The translations under genes and the position numbers were made by a program. Positions 6,256-63,083 of a DNA stretch of 64,000 nt are shown here, one piece after another. The notes beneath the pieces were generated by a model that saw only the letters and a program-made list of their open reading frames with translations, was not told the DNA's origin and ran no database searches. This DNA is from Candidatus Staskawiczbacteria bacterium (GTDB lineage: Bacteria > Patescibacteriota > Minisyncoccia > Minisyncoccales > Staskawiczbacteraceae). The first letter of the stretch is position 1; every line of letters starts with the position of its first letter. The stretch is taken from NCBI GenBank assembly GCA_903885445.1, contig CAISIO010000036.1:37485-101484 (forward strand), read 5' to 3'.

Positions 6256-6393
6256 CTAGCCAATCGGCAGTTTGAGGAACACCAGGAAGGCAACCACCAC
6301 TGCGACGACTCCCACGGCCACCAACACATGACGCCAGTCGATGGGAGTTCGCACAAGCGCGCCTTTCTGGTTGGCTCTCTTCTTGCTTGACAT
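6256..6393 (-). CDS. Small single-TM peptide (45 aa), GC-rich micro-island
   Basis: ATG with AAAGGAAG SD. MSSKKRANQKGALVRTPIDWRHVLVAVGVVAVVVAFLVFLKLPIG. Followed by GGGTTTC..GAAACCC hairpin + T-run (6191-6225). Preferred over overlapping track ORF 6111..6482 which looks like GC-driven junk. Confidence 0.4.
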   Translation of the reverse strand: MSSKKRANQKGALVRTPIDWRHVLVAVGVVAVVVAFLVFLKLPIG

Positions 6394-6423
6394 ACTCTTC
6401 CTTTCTCTGCCCATGTGAATGTA

Positions 6424-6666
6424 CTACGCCGTCGCCGCGGCCCTTGCGAGCAATCCGCCCGAGAAATCACGGCGATGCCCACCCTTGAGCCTGATGGTAA
6501 CCATCTCGGGATGAGCCTTTGGCGGTTCGGTCAGCTCTTCTTCTTCAAGAAGCTGTAGCCCGACAACCTCGAATGGGCCTTCGCCATGTTGCTCGGCCAA
6601 CTCGATTGGGGCGTCTTCGTCCCACACCACCTTCTCGCGGAGACTGAAACCGTATTTCACTGCCAT
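6424..6666 (-). CDS. Hypothetical small acidic protein (GC-rich island)
   Basis: 80-aa ORF with SD cagAAGGAGcgc 4 nt before ATG. Own TTGACT-16-TATTAT promoter at 6710-6737 (minus strand). Confidence 0.45.
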   Translation of the reverse strand: MAVKYGFSLREKVVWDEDAPIELAEQHGEGPFEVVGLQLLEEEELTEPPKAHPEMVTIRLKGGHRRDFSGGLLARAAATA

Positions 6667-6809
6667 TTTTGCGCTCCTTCTGTTAATTGCACAATTCCAG
6701 GTTAAACTTATAATACCTAAATTTACATATAAGTCAACTTATTAGCGCACAAAAAAAGCCACCGAAGTGACCTGTGGGGAAATAAATATTTTAATGAACT
6801 CGGATGCGC

Positions 6810-7052
6810 CTACTTCCTACGAAGGCGCCTCACCCTCTGCGGCGTGGCCTTGATCAAGGCTTCCCAGACGCTTGCAGGAAGCCCAATCGTTGGAGTGCTA
6901 CCCTCTACGAGTAGCCATTCCACCGGACCAACTTTCACCGAGAGCAACTTGTACGTTCCCGGCTCTATTGGGACTGTTGTCGGCTGAGCCTCCAATTTCC
7001 CGTCATCCGGGACCACCTCGACATTTATCTTTACCAACACTTCCACGCGCAT
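6810..7052 (-). CDS. Hypothetical small protein (GC-rich island)
   Basis: Start moved to internal ATG at 7052 preceded by AAGTAAGGAGCTGACA SD. Own TTGACT-17-TATTAT promoter upstream and hairpin+T-run terminator downstream. Confidence 0.45.
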   Translation of the reverse strand: MRVEVLVKINVEVVPDDGKLEAQPTTVPIEPGTYKLLSVKVGPVEWLLVEGSTPTIGLPASVWEALIKATPQRVRRLRRK

Positions 7053-7216
7053 TGTCAGCTCCTTACTTTTCCATTCGGTGATGATCGAAGCACATATATA
7101 TAATAACAATTTATTTTAGAAAAGTCAATAGCAAAAAAGCAGCTTACTGCAAAAAAAACAGACCACCGGCGTGCATGGTCCCATGAAGACGAGAATGTGA
7201 ATGTGCGATTGCCCGG

Positions 7217-7459
7217 CTAGTTCCGGTCGAGACTGACGTGCCCCTCGGCCTCTAGCGCATCCCAGGTTTCGGACAAAAGACCCGACTTACCATCGGCGTC
7301 GATGAGCCAGTCTTTGCCGGTCGTCGCGTCTTTCCACGGCGCCAGCCCTATGCGTTCACCAACCTGAAGACTCTTGGCTGTGACATGAGCAATGTCTCCC
7401 TTGCGGAGCACTGCCGGAATAACCAGCCTAAGCGTCCGTGCTTTCACCGTTGCAACCAT
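7217..7459 (-). CDS. Hypothetical small protein, possible AbrB/MazE-like fold (GC-rich island)
   Basis: 80-aa ORF, SD cagAAGGAGcgc. Segment RLVIPAVLRKGDIAHV resembles swapped-hairpin DNA-binding proteins (weak). Own TTGACT-17-TATTAT promoter and GACCA..TGGTC+T-run terminator. Confidence 0.45.
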   Translation of the reverse strand: MVATVKARTLRLVIPAVLRKGDIAHVTAKSLQVGERIGLAPWKDATTGKDWLIDADGKSGLLSETWDALEAEGHVSLDRN

Positions 7460-7725
7460 CTCCGCGCTCCTTCTGGTTGCGATTGCGGAAAATATTTCTT
7501 AACTATTATAATACCTTAAAGACTTCAAAAGTCAACGCTTTGTACAAAAAAACGGGGGCCGCGTGGCGACCCCTTGGAAAAAACGAAACTGGATTGGTTG
7601 TTAATGTGCTCGCTAGGCCGCCAATGCTAATCATAATTTAATAATTCGCTTGACATTTGTAAAAATTGTAATAGATTATTAATATAAGAAGTTTTAAGGT
7701 AAAAACAGGTAAAATAAGAAAAATC

Positions 7726-15357: not shown

Positions 15358-15852
15358 CTAATTTGTTTTTGAGAGGGCTTTTGCCATATCCAGCCATTTT
15401 GGCGCCCGTGGCTTACTTTTGTATTTTGCAGATGATTTATGGATTTCTATAAGAGAGCATATTTCATTCTTTTTCCAGCCCGCCAGCGCAAGCCCTTTGT
15501 TTTTGTAGATTATTTCCACGCCTTTTGCCCAAAGCTCAAAATCTTTCTTTTTATTTTCCGCCAAACAGTTTTTCTTAAAAAAGGGGACTACGGTCTCGGC
15601 AATGTCGCTGATTTTCTGCACAGAGAACCTTGCCTGGTCTTTTGATAAAGTAATTTCTCCACAACCGATTTCTTTTTTTATTTTCTCTAAAATTTTAATA
15701 TCATTTCTGGGCCCTGTAACAATAAATTGCGCCTTCCACCTGTAGTAAGTGGGGGAGTTGGTTCTTTCATGCCGTGTGTCTTTGCGAAACTGCAAATCAA
15801 AACATCCGTCATTGTTCACCAATTTTGCCACGCTAAATTTTTCTGCCGCCAT
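15358..15852 (-). CDS. Free-standing LAGLIDADG-family homing endonuclease
   Basis: FSVAKLVNNDGCFDLQFRK resembles the LAGLIDADG motif (L[AV]GxxDxDG.F) in a ~160-aa single-motif protein. Own TTGACA-17-TAAAAT promoter upstream. Confidence 0.6.
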   Translation of the reverse strand: MAAEKFSVAKLVNNDGCFDLQFRKDTRHERTNSPTYYRWKAQFIVTGPRNDIKILEKIKKEIGCGEITLSKDQARFSVQKISDIAETVVPFFKKNCLAENKKKDFELWAKGVEIIYKNKGLALAGWKKNEICSLIEIHKSSAKYKSKPRAPKWLDMAKALSKTN

Positions 15853-20320: not shown

Positions 20321-20379
20321 ATAAAAAAATTTATAAGTTATTTGTATATTATATCACTCCCCTTTTTTACAAGCAAAAG

Positions 20380-20393
20380 TTTGTCGCACAATA
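20380..20393 (+). repeat. 14-bp motif copy C (TTTGTCGCACAATA; 22/23 identical with copy F over TTTGTCGCACAATAAGATA[G/A]ACC)
   Basis: Direct sequence comparison. Confidence 0.75.
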
Positions 20394-20489
20394 AGATAGA
20401 CCAAAACTTAAAGCGATTCTTAAAAAAGTTTGGGCGGCTGCTTTGGTAAGCAGCCGCCCCGAGAATCTGATGGTCAGATCCCCCCGTTG

Positions 20490-20654
20490 TCACCGTGAAG
20501 GTGACGTTGATGTGGCCGGCGTGATGCCGGCGTTTTCCAGGGCTTTTGCGATGCCCTGGCTGTGATCGCCCTGCATCTGGGTTGTTCTGCCAACTGCCCA
20601 AGCTCCGATGCAGAGCCCCGTGGCAATCACCAACATCGCAAGAATCCATTTCAT
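20490..20654 (-). CDS. Small secreted peptide (54 aa, signal peptide), GC-rich micro-island
   Basis: MKWILAMLVIATGLCIGAWAVG signal-like N-terminus. Terminator GGGCGGCTGC..GCAGCCGCCC + T-run at 20410-20455. Preferred over out-of-frame track ORF 20338..20649. Confidence 0.45.
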   Translation of the reverse strand: MKWILAMLVIATGLCIGAWAVGRTTQMQGDHSQGIAKALENAGITPATSTSPSR

Positions 20655-34260: not shown

Positions 34261-35250
34261 TTAATTAGAAAGCAGGTTTGTGATAATTTTGACGATTTTG
34301 TCTTTTTCTGCGGGATTACTTATGGCAATCAAAAGCGAAAGCGCGGTTAAGGCGTTGTCATTTATTTTCTTTTCGTTGTTGTCTTTGTAAAGGTAATTAT
34401 TTTTGTCTAAATAATAAACAAACAAGAACGATGCGATTCTTTTGTTTCCGTCAACAAATGGGTGGTCTTTTATTATAAAGTATAACAAATGAGACGCCTT
34501 TTCTTCAATGCTCGAGTATAATTCCTTTTTATCAAATGTCTGCAAAATATTCCCCAAAATTGCTTTAAATTTATCTTCATATTCCTGGCCAAAAATTTCG
34601 CCTGCTTGTTTCTTCTCTATCAACTTTTTTTTAATTTCCTTAATAATTTCAGCTGATTTTCCGTAATTTAAAACAAACTTTCCTTTGCCGGTTTTCAGCA
34701 ACGAAACTTTTTCCTTGTCATATTGCTCGAGCAATGTTAAGGTTTTTGAATAATCCGCCAACAAACTCAAAATCTCCTGCTCTTGCCCCGCAAGTAACTC
34801 GTGCTTTGATTTTTCCTGTAAAAACAAAATTGACGACTGCAATTCCTTAAATTTATTTTCTGATTGCAGAAGTTTTTTCTCGTTTATCACAAACCCATCT
34901 ACGATATAGCTCCGTAGTGTTTTGGTTGTCCATTTTCTAAATTCTATTGCAACCTTTGAATTTGTCCTATACCCGACTCCCAGGATAACATCAAGCGAGT
35001 AAGATATAATAGGTTTATCAGAATTTGCATTATGCATTTTTTGCATATTGCTTTTTTCTTCAATTTCGCCGTCTCTAAATATGTTTTTTATGTGACGAGA
35101 AACCACCGATTGGTCAACGCCAAAAAGATTTACTATCTGCGCTTGTGTAGCCCAAATAGTTTCCCGCGCAAAATCTCCCCGAAGCTCAATAGCTCCAGAT
35201 TTTGCCTGATAAATAATTATTTCTCCTTTTTTTAATTCCTCTTTTTTCAT
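34261..35250 (-). CDS. Fic/DOC-family protein with N-terminal RhuM-like domain
   Basis: Fic motif HPFVDGNKR near C-terminus. N-terminal region resembles RhuM/virulence-protein family. Confidence 0.8.
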   Translation of the reverse strand: MKKEELKKGEIIIYQAKSGAIELRGDFARETIWATQAQIVNLFGVDQSVVSRHIKNIFRDGEIEEKSNMQKMHNANSDKPIISYSLDVILGVGYRTNSKVAIEFRKWTTKTLRSYIVDGFVINEKKLLQSENKFKELQSSILFLQEKSKHELLAGQEQEILSLLADYSKTLTLLEQYDKEKVSLLKTGKGKFVLNYGKSAEIIKEIKKKLIEKKQAGEIFGQEYEDKFKAILGNILQTFDKKELYSSIEEKASHLLYFIIKDHPFVDGNKRIASFLFVYYLDKNNYLYKDNNEKKINDNALTALSLLIAISNPAEKDKIVKIITNLLSN

Positions 35251-38521: not shown

Positions 38522-38716
38522 CGTTTCTTCCTCCGAAAGGTGGCAGAAATGTGTCGCGAACAACAAAAACGAAGTATTATTTGATAATAATACCGCTGGC
38601 AAAAAAACTAGTCAATTGTTTATAACTTTTTGTAAAGAAAAAAGGCGACCCGGGCACCCTCACGGTGAGGATGTCCAGGTCGCCCTAAAGATTGGGCTTG
38701 CAGCCCGACGTTCAGG

Positions 38717-38878
38717 CTACGCGCCGGACTGGTCGGCCAGGCGGGTGATCTTCTTGACCATGCCCATGTTGTCGGCGGCGTCGGCGGCAGGCGGATCGTT
38801 GTTGCGCCGGGTAGTCGCCTGATTGTTGGCATCCAGCAGATCCGCGCCCAGGGTACGATGCGTGCGTCGTCGGTTCAT
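38717..38878 (-). CDS. Small hypothetical protein (53 aa), GC-rich micro-island
   Basis: AGGAGA SD. TTGACA-17-TACGAT promoter with ~90-nt leader. Strong terminator GGCGACC..GGGTCGCC + T-run at 38640-38700. Confidence 0.4.
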   Translation of the reverse strand: MNRRRTHRTLGADLLDANNQATTRRNNDPPAADAADNMGMVKKITRLADQSGA

Positions 38879-39041
38879 GGTCGGTGTCTCCTAAGGAGCC
38901 GAAAGGTGCAGTGATGCGCCTAACCTTACACAGGTCAGTGTGTCTACACAATATAGGCACACGCGCATCGGTTGTTTATATTATCGTAGCTCCAACAAAA
39001 AACCGTGTCAAGAGTTAATAAAATTAACACAATGGCTGGAA

Positions 39042-43699: not shown

Positions 43700-45142
43700 T
43701 TAATAGGCTAATACTCTTTCGCCCAATTTTAATCCTGAAATAATTTCAACATTTTTATCGTCGCTGAGCCCAATCGAAACCTCTCTTGTTTCTTTCTTTG
43801 GATTTCCGCTGTCAACGATTACGAAATACTTGTTATTATTTTGTATAACTGCTGATTTGGGAACCAGCAAAACATTTGTGTGAGTTTCAGAAACTAGAAT
43901 TATATTCGCAGTCATACCCGGTTTTATTGAGCTATCTTGGCTTTTAAATTTTAGCTTTGCTCCATAAGCCGACACGCCGTTTATAATTGTGGGCGCCGAA
44001 TCAATGGAAATAATTGTGGCCGGGAAAACAGCGTTAGTTCCAAAGGCATCAAGCGTTACATTTGCTTGGCCGCCAACTTTTGCGTTAGTTAAATCTATTT
44101 CGGAAATATTGGTATTTATTTCTAAATTATTATTTGAGATTGTTATAACGGGAACATTTGAAGAAACAATCTGTCCTAAAACAATGTTATCTTTATCCAC
44201 CTGGCCTGCAAATAGCGCCCAAATTACTGTCTTTGAAATTTGAGTTTTTATGGCGCCAATGTTTGCCTGCGCCGCTTCAATCTGCGCGTCCGTCGTGCTT
44301 ATTGTCGCGGAATTATTAACCTTTTGCGCCGAAATTGCTTGTATATTGGCGGAAGTAGTAATAATTTCTAAATTAATATTTGTCTTTGCCGCGCTTATGC
44401 CCGCTCTTTCCGTAGAAGCCATTGACGGGTCAATCGGCAAAGCGTTGACCGAATCGCCCACATTTTGCAAAGCAATTTGCGAAGCTGAAAGCGCTCTATC
44501 TATATTTTCCTGCGTCGGGCTATTTATTGCATCCTGGACCAATCCAAAAGCCCCGCCATTTAATTGGCTTATCGCCTGCGATGTCCAAGATCCGGCGTCC
44601 GGGCGGCCAAGCAAAGAATTAACTGCCCTTGCTTTCACGTCCTGCAGGGCGATGTTTTGCTGATTTTGGGCGGTAAAATGGCTGTATTGTATGTCGGAAA
44701 TTGTAAGCAAAATATCCTTTGCCGCGGTTACAGATTTTTGCACGGCGCTCAAACTGCCAGCATAAAGAGTTTGCAGGCTTGCGCTTGTTTTGCTTTGTAC
44801 GGTGTCTATGTTCAAAGCGTCCAATTGTGCTTGCGCTTGTTTTAATTGGGATTGCAAAACCGAGCTGTCGATTGCCGCAAGAGCCTGCCCGCTATAAATT
44901 TTGGCGCCGACTTTTACATAATTTGCCACAATCCTTCCCTGTGTTTCAAAAGCCAAGTCAACTCCTTGGGAGGCTCGTACCTGCCCTGTTAAATTTATTC
45001 TTTCTGTAACGTCGCCATTTTTTGCCTCGACTGAAAATATTTTTATTGGCGAATTACTGCCGAAAATAAAATATAAAACCACGGCAATTATGATTACCGC
45101 GATTGCAATTCCGGCTATTAATAAATTTTTAGGTATTTTCAT
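43700..45142 (-). CDS. HlyD-family membrane-fusion protein with long coiled-coil hairpin
   Basis: N-terminal TM anchor, long alpha-helical region, C-terminal beta-barrel domain. Confidence 0.65.
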   Translation of the reverse strand: MKIPKNLLIAGIAIAVIIIAVVLYFIFGSNSPIKIFSVEAKNGDVTERINLTGQVRASQGVDLAFETQGRIVANYVKVGAKIYSGQALAAIDSSVLQSQLKQAQAQLDALNIDTVQSKTSASLQTLYAGSLSAVQKSVTAAKDILLTISDIQYSHFTAQNQQNIALQDVKARAVNSLLGRPDAGSWTSQAISQLNGGAFGLVQDAINSPTQENIDRALSASQIALQNVGDSVNALPIDPSMASTERAGISAAKTNINLEIITTSANIQAISAQKVNNSATISTTDAQIEAAQANIGAIKTQISKTVIWALFAGQVDKDNIVLGQIVSSNVPVITISNNNLEINTNISEIDLTNAKVGGQANVTLDAFGTNAVFPATIISIDSAPTIINGVSAYGAKLKFKSQDSSIKPGMTANIILVSETHTNVLLVPKSAVIQNNNKYFVIVDSGNPKKETREVSIGLSDDKNVEIISGLKLGERVLAY

Positions 45143-45183
45143 AATTTTTTATTATATTACAAAATTGAGGCATTGTCAATGTA

Positions 45184-45578
45184 ATAATACAAAAAAAATC
45201 GGCCACGGGAGGGGGCATTCTCCCGTGGCCTTACTGCACGGCCGAGGGACGACCGCATGCTTGCCCAGCGTAACGGCTGGGCTGACGTTTGAAAGGAACT
45301 GCTGGCAGTACTATGCCAAGCAAAGATGGTAAATAAAACAGTTGACGGGTGAGTTCCGGCGGTAATGCGTTGCGGGAATGTATTCCTGGTGCGCGGGTCC
45401 GCATTCCTCCGCTCGCCGCGCTGTGCCCGGAAACATAAGATTCCCACGGAGACCTTGCATTCGCCGCTTCACGATGCCGGGGGTTGGATTCTGCCCGTAG
45501 TGCGTGACCGATTGGGGGCCATCGTTGCCCATTTTGACCACATGGGTCCGTATCGGCACCCGCCAACTGTCTCTCAAC
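45184..45578 (-). ncRNA. Candidate GC-rich structured RNA (~395 nt), class unknown
   Basis: Minus-strand TTGACG-17-TAGATT promoter (45586-45614). Transcript ends at GGCCACGGGAG..CTCCCGTGGCC + T8 terminator (45190-45221). Many local and long-range helices (UUCCGG/CCGGAA enclosing GCGCGG/CCGCGC; UGGCA/UGCCA; CCCAGC/GCUGGG). All overlapping ORFs in 4 frames look like GC-driven junk. Confidence 0.4.
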
Positions 45579-45636
45579 TAATTCAAATCTACTACAACAA
45601 AAAAGCGCCGTCAAGCGCATCTTTGTTTTAATTTTT

Positions 45637-46134
45637 CTATTTTCCGTTAATAGAAAGCATATCGATTTCAAATACCAAGGTTGAGTTTGCGGGAATCAGC
45701 GGACTCGGGCTTCTCTCTCCGTAGGCTAATTCTGGTGGAATTGTCAGTTTTCTTTTTTCGCCGACCTTCATTCCCAAAACCCCCAAATTCCAGCCCTGTA
45801 TAACCTGGCCGGGCAATGAAAACTCAAAAGGCGTTCTTCCCGGGTTAAGGCTTGAATCAAACGGTGTTCCGTCCGTTAAAGTTCCCGAGTAATTTACTGT
45901 GACTGAATCTCCATTTTTTGCTCCCTCGCCAGTCCCCTGTTTTAAAATTTCTACTTTCATACCTTGTATCATAAAATTATTTGAATTGTTTGAATTAATA
46001 TTTTGCTCAGCCGCCGCATTTTTTTTCATGCGTTCGTCTGTAGTTGATTTATCCCAGGCCAACCAAATTACGCCGATTATCGCAATTAACATTACTACTA
46101 TTATGATGCTTAATATTATAGATATTTTATTCAT
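45637..46134 (-). CDS. FKBP-type peptidyl-prolyl cis-trans isomerase (membrane-anchored)
   Basis: FKBP domain motifs ...VTVNYSGTLTDGTPFDSS...GWNLGVLGMKVGEKRKLTIPPELAYG...LVFEIDML. Confidence 0.85.
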   Translation of the reverse strand: MNKISIILSIIIVVMLIAIIGVIWLAWDKSTTDERMKKNAAAEQNINSNNSNNFMIQGMKVEILKQGTGEGAKNGDSVTVNYSGTLTDGTPFDSSLNPGRTPFEFSLPGQVIQGWNLGVLGMKVGEKRKLTIPPELAYGERSPSPLIPANSTLVFEIDMLSINGK

Positions 46135-57804: not shown

Positions 57805-57824
57805 TTATTTTACTCTTTATCTAT
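57805..57824. repeat. Conserved promoter module copy R1 (revcomp ATAGATAAAGAGTAAAATAA)
   Basis: Same 20-mer found at 60345 and 62462, each immediately upstream of a minus-strand AT-rich enzyme gene. Confidence 0.7.
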
Positions 57825-57901
57825 ATTTTTGCAAAAAAAATCCCCAACGCGCTTTGATCTGCGTGGGGACATGAGACATTCAGTTGCACCGGGTGGCGCA
57901 A

Positions 57902-58405
57902 CTACTTGACGACGTATTCCTCGAAGTTCTCCTTGGGCGGATTGGGCTTGGTCTTGAACGGCGCCCAGTTGAACTTCGAACTTGAAGCGTTGTACTCCCT
58001 GGCCAGGTTGTTCCGTTGGGAAGCAACAGCGATGAGATCTTCCCTCGCTTGCTGACGCTCCCTATTGAACTGGACCTGGATGTGGGGTGGCCACTTGGAC
58101 CTGTCGTCGCCGTAGCTCTTGTACTGCTCGTCCACCGACGAGCCCCGCTTCTCGAACATGACGATGTCCTGGTCCATCTTCTTTATGCGGGCGTTCTGGT
58201 CGATGAACCATTCGTACTTCTCGAGCGCGGCCTTGGGGCCGAACTCCTGCTGGGCGACCACCGCCGCCTCGCCGAACCAGCCGAAGCCGTATCCGATGAC
58301 GCCCACGACCACGGAAAACGCCACCACGAAAAGGATGACCTTCCAGGTGATGGACCAAGGACCCTTCTCCGCCGCTTGCTGATACCCATTCCAGTTGTTG
58401 CTCAT
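57902..58405 (-). CDS. Hypothetical membrane-anchored protein (GC-rich)
   Basis: 167-aa ORF with N-terminal TM. Terminator CCCCAACGC..GCGTGGGG + T-run at 57839-57875. Confidence 0.4.
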   Translation of the reverse strand: MSNNWNGYQQAAEKGPWSITWKVILFVVAFSVVVGVIGYGFGWFGEAAVVAQQEFGPKAALEKYEWFIDQNARIKKMDQDIVMFEKRGSSVDEQYKSYGDDRSKWPPHIQVQFNRERQQAREDLIAVASQRNNLAREYNASSSKFNWAPFKTKPNPPKENFEEYVVK

Positions 58406-58456
58406 GCGATTCTCCTGTTCCCGAGGTTAATTGTTCCGTTCTGGTGCCCGTTCGTC

Positions 58457-59155
58457 CTACTTCTTCTCCGCCTCGACCTTGAACTTGCCCTCCTTGATTC
58501 TCAGTTGCTCCTCCTGCTGGAGTTGCCAGTCGTGAGCGGCCTTGCTCATGTTGTACATACCCGTCACCTCGTCTTGTGGGTTGACGAGATCAATAGGGTA
58601 ATCGGTGATCAGGTAACCAATGCCGCCCGCCGTACCATACTGATGGTATCTGTGCATGGCGTCGAACCAGTAAATGTAGTTGTCCGATTCTCCACGGGTT
58701 CCGTCGGGGCCGATGGCCTCGTCTGTGAGAAAACCCTTATAGCTCGGTAGGCTGCTGGTGACCACGTTTTGACCATCAGCAACATAGTGCTTCGGTTCCA
58801 ACCGCTTGTTGGAACTGGTGACCTTGCAAGCCACCGGCATCCGCTTGATGATTTTGCCGTCCAGGGCCATCAAGTGAATCCACATCACCTTGGTGGGGTC
58901 ATTGGTCACCGCAATGCGGTCGTTGATGTTCTGCTGTTCGACCGTGTTGCCTCTGGAGTTCAGCGGTACTTTGACTGGAGAAGCTTGCTTGGCACCACTT
59001 GCCGATTCTTCGATCCTCCGATTATCGCACCCGCTCTGGCCTTGCCCTACCATCAGGCAGAGCACTCCGAACACAACCATTATTGTCGCCTTGCGCATGT
59101 TTGCGCTCCTTTCCAACTTCTCACGAGATTGTATGGACAAACCCCGCCATTTCAA
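58457..59155 (-). CDS. Hypothetical lipoprotein-like protein (GC-rich)
   Basis: Probable true start at internal MRKATIMVVFGVLCLMVGQGQSGC (signal + Cys). Confidence 0.4.
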   Translation of the reverse strand: MKWRGLSIQSREKLERSANMRKATIMVVFGVLCLMVGQGQSGCDNRRIEESASGAKQASPVKVPLNSRGNTVEQQNINDRIAVTNDPTKVMWIHLMALDGKIIKRMPVACKVTSSNKRLEPKHYVADGQNVVTSSLPSYKGFLTDEAIGPDGTRGESDNYIYWFDAMHRYHQYGTAGGIGYLITDYPIDLVNPQDEVTGMYNMSKAAHDWQLQQEEQLRIKEGKFKVEAEKK

Positions 59156-59326
59156 TGGCGAGATAAAACGAGGGGCTAGGACTTTTCTGCTAAAATGTCT
59201 CCTTTCAGATTTACAACGAACCGATTAGACAGCCACAAGCTGTCTAACTTACACTTTGGATTATAGCACTATTTATTATTAATGTCAACAGACGTAAAAC
59301 CAAAAAGCCGAGATAAAATCTCGGCG

Positions 59327-60344: not shown

Positions 60345-60406
60345 TTATTTTACTCTTTATCTATTTCTTTTCAATCACCGCCATCGGGTCAACGAACTGA
60401 CCCGAT
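60345..60406. repeat. Promoter module + 24-bp palindrome, copy R2/P2 (ATCGGGTCA-ACGAAC-TGACCCGAT at 60383-60406)
   Basis: ~62 bp near-identical to 62462-62523. Confidence 0.75.
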
Positions 60407-60503
60407 AAAATTTGCAAGAAAAATGGCCCGGCAACCAGCATCCTTGCTGGTCATCGGGCCTTTGTGTCGCGCTCGCTATATGCGAGCAAAACCTGTTAGA
60501 GGA

Positions 60504-60878
60504 CTAACCCTCCTCATCGTCCTCGTCGAGGGGTCTGTCTTTCTTGCCTTCATCCTCATCGTCATCTTCCTCGTCCTCGTCATCGTCGGGGAAGAGACTC
60601 CAGTCTTCCTCTTCCTCGTCGTCGTCATCGTCAAGGTTCTGATCCAGGAGGTTCCCCTCGGCGAGCTCTCGGGCGGTCGCGGCGAGCCACTCACGGAGTT
60701 CTTCCGGCGTGACGCCCATCTCCTTGGCAGCACGGAGGAAAAGCTCTTTGTCGAGTTCCTCGGTACTGTCGTTCAAGGGAAGATCTTCGCCAGGGTATTT
60801 CTCCGGCTTCAGCTCCTTCTCTTTCCAGTTCCACTCGTCCACCGCCAGGCCAATCGTCTCAATCCTTGCCTTGTCCAC
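60504..60878 (-). CDS. Hypothetical highly acidic protein (GC-rich), paralog of 61192..61536
   Basis: GTG start with AAGGAGA SD. Shares ...VDEWNWKEKE...LFLRAAKEMGVTPEELREW... with neighbour. Poly-D/E tail. Terminator at 60420-60470. Confidence 0.45.
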   Translation of the reverse strand: MDKARIETIGLAVDEWNWKEKELKPEKYPGEDLPLNDSTEELDKELFLRAAKEMGVTPEELREWLAATARELAEGNLLDQNLDDDDDEEEEDWSLFPDDDEDEEDDDEDEGKKDRPLDEDDEEG

Positions 60879-61191
60879 GTCAGTCTCCTTTTCTCGGCGC
60901 TACTTGTCCTTGTGTTATCGCCAACAGTTGCTCTGGCGCTTCAGCGGCGGTTAAGGCAACTGTTTTCGTACTATGAATATAATATCATATATAGAAATTA
61001 CGTCAATATTAAAATCAAACAAAAAGTACGGTAGCCTAAGAGCACGATTTCGCTATCTTAATGCGGATTAAATTAGTCCGCATCGCGGTTTTCTGCTAAG
61101 CCTTAATTCGCGCAAAAAAATCCCCGAGCACGCGATGATCTGCGTGTCCGGGGTCCCTTCTCGCCTTGCTGAAGCGAGAACTTACGACAAT

Positions 61192-61536
61192 TCATGCTCC
61201 CGCGCCTCGTCGGTCAGCTCTCTTCCCACACTGTTGGTCGGAGCGAGCGCGGCAAGGATGTCCGTCTGTGCTGAGCATATCAGCTATGCGCAGTGGACTC
61301 ACGTTTGGAGAAGGCGCTCCGAGCGGTCCGCACAGATCCTCCTCGAACCAATTGTGTAGTTCGTCTGGTTCGATGCTCATTTCCCGGGCCGCGCGGAGAA
61401 ACAATTTCCTGTTTTCCCCCTCAGTGTTGACGGTCAGTGCAGGAATGGCATTGGGAAAGTCTTTTCCCACTTGCTCCTTATCGTTCCATTCTTTCACCAG
61501 CCTTTCAATGTCGCCGAAACGCACATGTGTCATCAT
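61192..61536 (-). CDS. Hypothetical protein (GC-rich), paralog of 60504..60878
   Basis: AAGGAGA SD. ...VKEWNDKEQV...LFLRAAREMSIEPDELHNW... Confidence 0.45.
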   Translation of the reverse strand: MMTHVRFGDIERLVKEWNDKEQVGKDFPNAIPALTVNTEGENRKLFLRAAREMSIEPDELHNWFEEDLCGPLGAPSPNVSPLRIADMLSTDGHPCRARSDQQCGKRADRRGAGA

Positions 61537-61655
61537 GATTGTCTCCTTTTTCGGCCTATGCTCGTCGCACGTTATTTATATATAAAATACCACATATAAA
61601 AATGTGTGTCAATAAAAATAAAAGCAAACAAAAAGCCGATATTGAAGTGTCGGCT

Positions 61656-62461: not shown

Positions 62462-62523
62462 TTATTTTACTCTTTATCTATTTCTTTTCAACCGATGCCA
62501 TCGGGTCAACGAACTGACCCGAT
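62462..62523. repeat. Promoter module + 24-bp palindrome, copy R3/P3 (ATCGGGTCA-ACGAAC-TGACCCGAT at 62500-62523)
   Basis: Near-identical to 60345-60406. Additional nested palindrome CCGATGCCATCGG. Confidence 0.75.
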
Positions 62524-62596
62524 AAAACAGGCAAAAAAAACAGCTTCACTCCAAGTGAGCCTTGATGTGAAGCCTGCGTCGCAACGAAGCGTCCGC

Positions 62597-62965
62597 CTAG
62601 AGGGCGAGCTTCTTGCACAATCGTGCGACATCACTGCTGACCTGCAATGCCCTGGCGCAGAACTCCTCTGGGCTTTTGCCCTCCTTGGCGGCCAGCTTTG
62701 CGATTACATCCTGCCTAAGGGAGTGAGTTTTGGCGATGACCTTCCCGGGTACGTCTGGCGAAACGCCAAGCGTAACGGCAATCTGGTCCAGGGTCGGCAT
62801 GGCACCGCCGGCTACCAGAACCTTCAAGGTCAAGTATCCTACGACGGCCCGGGACTGCTTGCCCCGATCCACTGGCGGACTCGCGGCCGGCTTAGCCTCG
62901 GTTTCGACTTCTGTTCCATTGGGCATGTTGCACCATTCCTTTTCTGTGGCCAATTGTTGCGACAC
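62597..62965 (-). CDS. Hypothetical small protein with possible HTH (GC-rich)
   Basis: ...PTLDQIAVTLGVSPDVPGKVIAK resembles a helix-turn-helix. Terminator GCTTCAC..GTGAAGC + T8. Confidence 0.4.
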   Translation of the reverse strand: MSQQLATEKEWCNMPNGTEVETEAKPAASPPVDRGKQSRAVVGYLTLKVLVAGGAMPTLDQIAVTLGVSPDVPGKVIAKTHSLRQDVIAKLAAKEGKSPEEFCARALQVSSDVARLCKKLAL

Positions 62966-63083
62966 CTATATTTAATATAATCTCTGTAGGTTTTCTGTCA
63001 ACATGAAAAAATCTCAAATGAGTAGAATTACGCGAATAATTTTACAAAAAAATGCCCCTTAATTTTTATCAAGGGGCTGAAAG

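Follow-up and report, generated by a model that had tools for sequence, protein, structure and literature searches.

Positions 45192-45614 on the minus strand of the window, i.e. the whole stretch of 64,000 nt that was analysed, are occupied by a candidate RNA block whose computed GC content is 0.58, vs. 0.41 window-wide. The block is flanked upstream by a gene coding for an FKBP-type isomerase (45637-46134, minus strand; PF00254) and downstream by the gene of an HlyD-type adaptor (43700-45142, minus strand), the first gene of a hlyD / 216-aa / MFS efflux operon. Both the composition and the gene coordinates bear out an earlier sequence-only reading, which had placed a GC-rich block between an efflux operon and an FKBP gene. 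According to the neighbouring proteins and to named database matches, the host chromosome is that of a Parcubacteria member (Candidatus Staskawiczbacteria-like). Elsewhere in the window, a RhuM/Fic-domain protein, of a kind typical of mobile or toxin-type modules, is encoded about 10 kb from the block (34261-35250, minus strand), and a free-standing LAGLIDADG homing-endonuclease gene (15358-15852, minus strand) is found within a very AT-rich stretch, outside any detected rRNA or intron.

A promoter-like site, TTGACG-17-TAGATT (45586..45614, minus strand), matches the consensus at 9 of 12 positions, with a predicted transcription start at about 45579 on the same strand. The FKBP terminator, a weak one (45618-45605), has this -35 hexamer in its loop. 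At the other end, the intrinsic terminator HP3 (GGCCACGGGAG..CTCCCGTGGCC, followed by GA-T8; 45191..45230, minus strand, the part from the hairpin to T8 being 45230..45201) has an 11-bp stem with nine G-C pairs. The signal scan recovered on the minus strand both the promoter and the T8 terminator that had been proposed from the letters alone. While these signals are read directly in the DNA, transcription itself is predicted: the block looks like an independent minus-strand non-coding transcription unit, from promoter to terminator giving a predicted RNA of about 390 nt. Twelve bases past the terminator region, and outside the RNA, begins the consensus promoter of hlyD (TTGACA-17-TATAAT, 12/12; 45151..45179, minus strand). 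It ends 8 nt before the hlyD ATG at 45142, so that the efflux-operon transcript is expected to be leaderless and is probably constitutive.

Relatives of the block and their divergence

Homologues were sought by a synteny walk outward from the FKBP and HlyD homologues, which comprised 12 contig look-ups and yielded three related pieces: L005, a fragment identical to the window copy; L004, a diverged copy; and L061, a piece from a sister sample, with the same sequence as L004 throughout the block. These amount to two distinct sequences only, a number with which covariation is not open to statistical testing. As for the neighbouring FKBP gene, the L004 type (read from the identical L061 copy) has 91% protein and 86% DNA identity with that of the window, and 30 of the 54 four-fold sites (56%) agree; neither the FKBP terminator nor the intergenic spacers can still be recognised from one copy to the other. 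Since the neighbouring four-fold sites are only 56% identical and the spacers have been replaced, the conserved blocks of the RNA appear to be under constraint. The FKBP genes of L061 (32-481) and L004 (27-419) also differ from the window gene by an insertion of about 19 residues near the C-terminus (GAGYGGRFGCAGQNNCDPNKETYT region).

The block is absent from the loci whose FKBP has 87, 81 and 73% identity, and therefore dispensable; it is equally absent from every other retrieved locus. BLAST searches of both copies against phages, plasmids and E. coli genomes gave no match, and nhmmer, run with both copies against the window and all the fetched loci, returned only self matches and marginal mutual matches of the 3' domain (E = 0.05-0.1). 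A scan for the pattern of the best-conserved hairpin (GCCCAGCCGTTNNGCNGGGCAA), which is too short for the size of the genome and metagenome collections, gave 23 matches in genome contigs, 22 in metagenome contigs and one in a viral contig; all of them come from GC-rich genomes, are due to chance and lack the flanking boxes. In viral contigs, no match was obtained with the terminator pattern, and the two obtained with a pattern made of AACUCAC and box A (see below) are chance matches inside coding sequence. A literature search on non-coding RNAs of the candidate phyla radiation (CPR) retrieved nothing relevant. The block is a narrowly distributed, lineage-restricted element, new to databases, which we judge to be non-coding and probably functional.

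Parts of the predicted RNA and their conservation

All the parts described here lie on the minus strand and are given from 5' to 3'. The promoter has a counterpart in L004, CTTGACA-17-TACGTT; the -10 hexamers of the window copy (TAGATT) and of L004 (TACGTT) are both weak, and in both copies 11 nt separate this hexamer from an AGAGAC box. The 5' strand of a long-range helix, P1 (GAGAGACAGUUGGCGGGUG; 45557..45575), begins about 4 nt past the predicted transcription start, and its AGAGAC box is kept in L004. P1 encloses a GC-rich core of about 203 nt (45352..45556), and its 3' strand (CACCCGUCAACUGUUUUAU; 45333..45351) comes just after a conserved AACUCAC box (45355-45349). In the window copy, the 5' strand forms 17 contiguous pairs with 45351-45335, a run attained by none of 300 shuffles, and the helix measures 17-19 bp overall; in L004 it consists of 12 pairs, a bulge and 6 pairs. 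Between the two copies, three two-sided and four one-sided compatible changes have occurred in P1 with no internal break, and the bases at its junction with the core (CCGA on the 5' side, AACU on the 3' side) are common to both.

P1 is followed by a conserved linker, box A (AUUUACCAUCUUUGC, vs. AUUUUCCGUUCUUUGC in L004; 45320..45334), which is predicted to be mostly unpaired; the linker sequence common to both copies is AUUUNCCNUNCUUUGC. Next to it, a variable hairpin (UUGGCAUAGUACUGCCAG; 45302..45319) is absent in L004. The best-conserved block in the comparison with L004 (45252..45288) is made up of ACGUCA, hairpin HP1 (GCCCAGC-CGUUAC-GCUGGGC) and then AAGCAUGCGGU, the 31 nt from HP1 to CAUGCGGU showing only four differences. 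Hairpin HP2 (GCGGUCG-UCCCU-CGGCCGU; 45238..45256) takes the form UCGGCCG-GUUCAU-CGGCCGA in L004, with one two-sided and one one-sided compatible change, and L004 has an extra hairpin of about 55 nt inserted ahead of it. The terminator stem and its GAU8 tail are also kept in L004, with one compensatory change of an A-U to a G-C pair. HP1, HP2 and the terminator constitute a 3' domain of about 150 nt, in which they are separated by short conserved boxes (UCUUUGC, ACGUCA and CAUGCGGU) predicted to be single-stranded. This domain aligns between the two copies with z = 8.4, and its fold, compared with shuffles, gives z = -5.5 and -4.3 in the two copies.

When P1, HP2 and the terminator are combined, five two-sided compensatory changes, five one-sided compatible changes and 30 invariant pairs are counted. 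Four helix positions are unpaired, namely three helix-end pairs and one A-C mismatch within HP1. The window-copy helices contain six G-U pairs, four of them in P1; these agree with a minus-strand RNA, since the other strand would give A-C mismatches, and the orientation is the same as that of the terminator. The fold of the whole RNA reaches -161.6 kcal/mol (z = -4.1), a stability attained by none of 100 dinucleotide shuffles and due to the hairpins of the 3' domain and to P1, the long helix that closes the 5' domain.

The core behaves differently from these parts. Taken alone (203 nt), it folds with z = +0.45, and the L004 core with z = +0.02 (dinucleotide shuffles). No alignment was found between it and the L004 core (L004:521-708), the z values being 1.0-1.5 in the same orientation and 1.1-1.7 when one of them is inverted. 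Given that a core simulated with the divergence of the FKBP four-fold sites and up to 10 indels still gives z of about 6, the core must have been replaced, or have changed faster than synonymous sites, while staying at about 60% GC. Despite the 41% GC of the genome, the block has a GC content of about 58-60% in both lineages, and the core is the part responsible for this richness and for the many open frames. About half of the molecule is thus neither conserved nor detectably structured.

The sequence-only reading had described a single structured RNA of about 395 nt with multiple helices, and proposed a comparative alignment as a check. In this alignment, limited to two sequences, the long-range helix and three hairpins are maintained in the diverged relative, P1 and the 3' hairpins through compensatory changes; the claim does not extend to the core. 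All the helices that had been named do exist in the sequence, and CCCAGC/GCUGGG (i.e. HP1) and UGGCA/UGCCA both belong to the minimum-free-energy fold. UUCCGG/CCGGAA and GCGCGG/CCGCGC, on the other hand, are located in the unconserved core and find no support in the comparison with the only relative.

Alternative explanations for the block

GC-richer cassettes (52-60%), each with a small ORF and its own promoter and terminator, are found on the minus strand at 6256-7535, 20338-20649, 38640-39011, 57902-59288, 60504-61006, 61192-61612 and 62597-63001. Their promoters often read TTGACT-16/17-TATTAT, a Shine-Dalgarno sequence is present in both cassettes checked for it (38.7 kb and 58-59 kb), and several show strong codon periodicity; those tested with Pfam are without significant match. 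They look like horizontally acquired small-protein genes. Since the other GC-rich blocks examined hold plausible small protein genes, GC-richness alone is no evidence for an RNA here. The candidate block shares no sequence similarity with these other blocks, and those that resemble one another share only a repeated downstream promoter module.

This intergenic module of 79 nt (60345-60424 and 62462-62540, 90% identity; partial copy at 57805-57835) consists of a hairpin, ATCGGGTCAGTTCGTTGACCCGAT, and a TTGAAA-16-TAAAAT promoter; GC-rich cassettes precede it, and genes of the GNAT, nucleoside-transferase-like and NUDIX types follow it. Two of the GC-rich ORFs (60504-60878 and 61192-61536, minus strand) are paralogues with LFLRAA(K/R)EM..P(E/D)EL in common, one of them having a long Asp/Glu tail. 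At 57902-59155 (minus strand), two in-frame GC-rich ORFs are separated by stop codons; they code for a lipoprotein-like product of 232 aa (signal peptide, Cys) and for a product of 167 aa with one membrane helix, neither with a significant Pfam match.

The block could itself be what is left of a GC-rich cassette that was acquired horizontally, has lost its ORF and is decaying, amounting to transcribed junk or to non-functional DNA. This explanation is conceivable, yet we find it unlikely. It accounts for the company of at least eight other GC-richer blocks in which a plausible small protein gene comes with a promoter and a terminator of its own, for a core that lacks conservation and does not exceed shuffles in structure, for the weak 3-periodicity of the window copy in the frame of an 88-aa ORF, and for the lack of the element in near relatives. 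What it leaves unexplained is that the P1 pairing was kept over three two-sided and four one-sided changes where unconstrained neighbouring sequence has become unrecognisable, along with the terminator stem and the 31-nt stretch with its four differences. That some 200 nt of useless GC-rich DNA should persist in both lineages, given a small AT-rich genome, would also be unexpected, and no long-range inverted repeat comparable to P1 was found in the other cassettes.

A second explanation draws on the efflux operon. In relatives (L054:1975-2460, L057:2030-2517 and L007:400-788), the region ahead of this operon contains a promoter, an operator in the form of a palindrome and marR, an AT-rich gene; the relative with the 81% FKBP has the gene order FKBP -> marR. 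In the window, marR and the palindromic operator are absent at the efflux operon: only 8 nt separate the marR-type promoter (ATTGACAATG...), now fused to hlyD, from the start of this gene, and the GC-rich unit is just upstream of this promoter. When set beside the marR-hlyD-MFS operons of related Parcubacteria, the window agrees with them in operon and promoter type, with the block just upstream of the marR slot; the block itself is unlike marR, since it contains no MarR-like ORF and has 58% GC, vs. an AT-rich marR.

The block might accordingly be seen as a cis-acting leader or regulator of the efflux operon that replaced MarR, acting by read-through when the terminator is bypassed (e.g. with a ligand or a protein on the 3' domain), or locally on the leaderless hlyD mRNA. 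Its location between FKBP and the efflux promoter, where relatives have a promoter and then operator and marR in front of the same hlyD / 216-aa / MFS operon, speaks for such a role, as do the disappearance of marR and its operator from the window and the joint preservation in L004 of the 3' domain together with both terminator and downstream promoter. Nevertheless, we consider it rather improbable: the 12/12 promoter between the terminator and the ATG frees the operon from any need of read-through, the terminator is strong (11 bp plus U8) with no conserved antiterminator pairing found, and the scan of the conserved boxes against start regions (see below) did not single out hlyD. Moreover, the L004 contig stops at the -10 hexamer of the downstream promoter, short of any marR position, so the loss of marR is seen in the window only. 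A riboswitch or cis leader proper was rejected in view of this same promoter, which separates the terminator from the ORF, the lack of a match to any riboswitch or leader family and the lack of conserved alternative pairing on inspection.

Very little credence is given to a third explanation, a DNA-level element, i.e. either a segment capable of inversion or a small non-autonomous mobile element with the 19-bp inverted repeats as its ends. Inverted repeats do surround a segment of about 200 bp whose interior is wholly different between two otherwise collinear loci, and an interior more diverged than four-fold sites fits replacement. However, the two P1 arms differ at four G-U positions and nonetheless co-vary between lineages, which fits RNA pairing and not the recognition by a protein of two identical sites. 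An invertible DNA switch was rejected, the cores being unalignable in inverted orientation as well and no recombinase being encoded within 25 kb; no transposase is found nearby either, and the sole integrase-family gene is located 25 kb away. A mobile element with terminal inverted repeats was rejected as well: the block and the P1 repeat each occur as a single copy in the 64-kb window, and direct reading revealed neither a flanking direct repeat nor any other target-site duplication.

Concerning the coding potential, five ORFs of 80 to 146 aa overlap in five frames across the block, roughly as had been reported from the sequence (four overlapping frames). The rule that many open frames denote non-coding DNA is unsafe here, as most other GC-rich blocks hold plausible small protein genes. 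The longest ORF (146 aa) has no homologue among 5.8 billion proteins, and since this search fails to retrieve even the ORF itself, no gene caller has ever reported it. One 88-aa ORF was searched against 1.84 billion representatives, with no homologue found. No Pfam match was obtained for any ORF of the block nor for the L004 frames, and tblastx between the window copy and L004 yielded only short matches at the nucleotide-conserved blocks, in shifting frames. By direct reading, the differences from L004 in box A and in the 3' strand of P1 occupy codon positions 1 and 2. The only sign of coding is a weak 3-base periodicity of the window copy in the frame of the 88-aa ORF (p = 0.009, uncorrected), which is absent in L004. 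A protein-coding gene was therefore rejected: the conserved and translated ORF that would speak against an RNA did not emerge from the conservation searches made with the 146-aa ORF and one 88-aa ORF.

A small fast-evolving protein, encoded by the 73/88-aa ORF (45314-45577) and by a 71-aa ORF of L004 sharing its frame at AACUCAC, is hardly credible, for although some 70 codons are open in both copies and the frame with the weak periodicity is common at that box (direct reading), mostly open frames throughout are expected at 60% GC, a Shine-Dalgarno sequence is lacking, unlike in the neighbouring cassettes, and peptide similarity between the copies is absent outside the nucleotide-conserved blocks.

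Proposed reading and comparison with known RNAs

At the Rfam 15 gathering threshold and at E<=0.05, only two tRNAs were detected in the whole window. When the 4227 models were searched at E<=10 against 45100-45700 and against L004, no family was found, the best score being 25.5 bits vs. a gathering score of 47 and the hits being mostly terminators. ARAGORN predicts nothing at the block locus and no tmRNA in the window. The sequence-only reading had failed by eye to match the block to RNase P, tmRNA, SRP or group II intron; the Rfam search that it proposed assigns it to none of them, and ARAGORN agrees.

Individual classes were also considered. Bacterial RNase P RNA was rejected, since no model matches at E<=10 and the P4-core regions GGAAAGUCC and ACAGAA-CCGGCUUA are, by direct reading, absent from the window RNA; L004 has UAAAGUCCUCGG, which is non-collinear with anything in the window copy. 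A tmRNA was rejected on the lack of both an ARAGORN prediction in the window and an Rfam tmRNA match. 6S RNA folds into a rod of about 180-200 nt, in which a large central bubble separates the closing stem from the terminal stem. No Rfam match to it was found, and the P1 domain (229-241 nt) comes out of the fold predictions as multi-branched and not rod-like, although such predictions are themselves unreliable with a core z near 0. A retron or DGR template RNA was rejected: no reverse-transcriptase domain was found in the approximately 60 window ORFs scanned with Pfam, nor was a second copy of the block.

The reading that we put forward, held with about even confidence, is that the block is an orphan, lineage-specific non-coding RNA gene of about 390 nt, single-copy and on the minus strand, in which selection would act on P1 and on the 3' domain, the core being a tolerated variable insert. 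Such an RNA would start from the block's own promoter and stop at the block's own terminator, a strong one. Its 3' domain would be the working part, through RNA pairing or protein binding. P1 may shield the 5' end; alternatively, it may be a double-stranded site at which processing of the RNase III type frees the 3' domain. For the core, the role of a tolerated, variable GC-rich filler is proposed. As with transcription, any processing and any target are conjectural. When the three conserved boxes were compared with 63 start regions in the window in search of targets, no specific candidate emerged, and the top scores tracked GC content.

A bolder version, which we regard as a long shot, would make the block an RNA gene in the regulatory slot of the lost MarR, with a 3' domain that senses or transmits a signal tuning the efflux operon and a P1-bracketed core that serves as hypervariable cargo, exchanged or diversified at a rate above that of synonymous sites. 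If true, this would define an RNA element of a new kind, in which a conserved frame carries a variable insert.

As it stands, the block is a modest, lineage-restricted candidate with two sequences behind it. The non-coding RNAs of candidate-phyla-radiation bacteria are almost unexplored, and a conserved, independently transcribed RNA without an Rfam family would be a small addition to them. The layout is unusual: the ends are conserved, the clamp helix co-varies, and the core has outpaced neighbouring synonymous sites in its divergence, all this beside the slot in which relatives have a repressor. If a function were shown, the block would offer a tractable case of tiny genomes gaining RNA genes and losing protein regulators.

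Among known systems, RNAIII of Staphylococcus is a multi-domain regulatory RNA. The block is comparable to it in its length of several hundred nt, its own promoter and terminator, the long-range helix closing its 5' end and, as in RNAIII, a 5' extremity and a 3' hairpin domain that are conserved between species while the centre diverges. This is an analogy of layout only: there is no sequence or family relation to RNAIII, no peptide gene is embedded in the block, and the C-rich loop (UCCCU in HP2) is not kept in L004.

RNase III processing stems bracket pre-16S and pre-23S rRNA. P1 is similar to them in being a long helix, perfect or containing G-U pairs, whose arms are about 200 nt apart and co-vary while the enclosed sequence is free to differ. 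Unlike in these stems, the enclosed RNA is no known functional RNA, and 17-19 bp represents the lower limit for RNase III substrates.

Finally, large bacterial RNAs are usually spotted as GC-rich, ORF-free blocks in AT-rich genomes. Although, unlike ROOL, GOLLD, OLE, raiA, HEARO and the housekeeping RNAs (RNase P, tmRNA, 6S and SRP), neither the window copy nor L004 is matched by any of the 4227 Rfam models, the block has the same appearance as all of these, that of a GC-rich, ORF-free block of hundreds of nt in an AT-rich genome.
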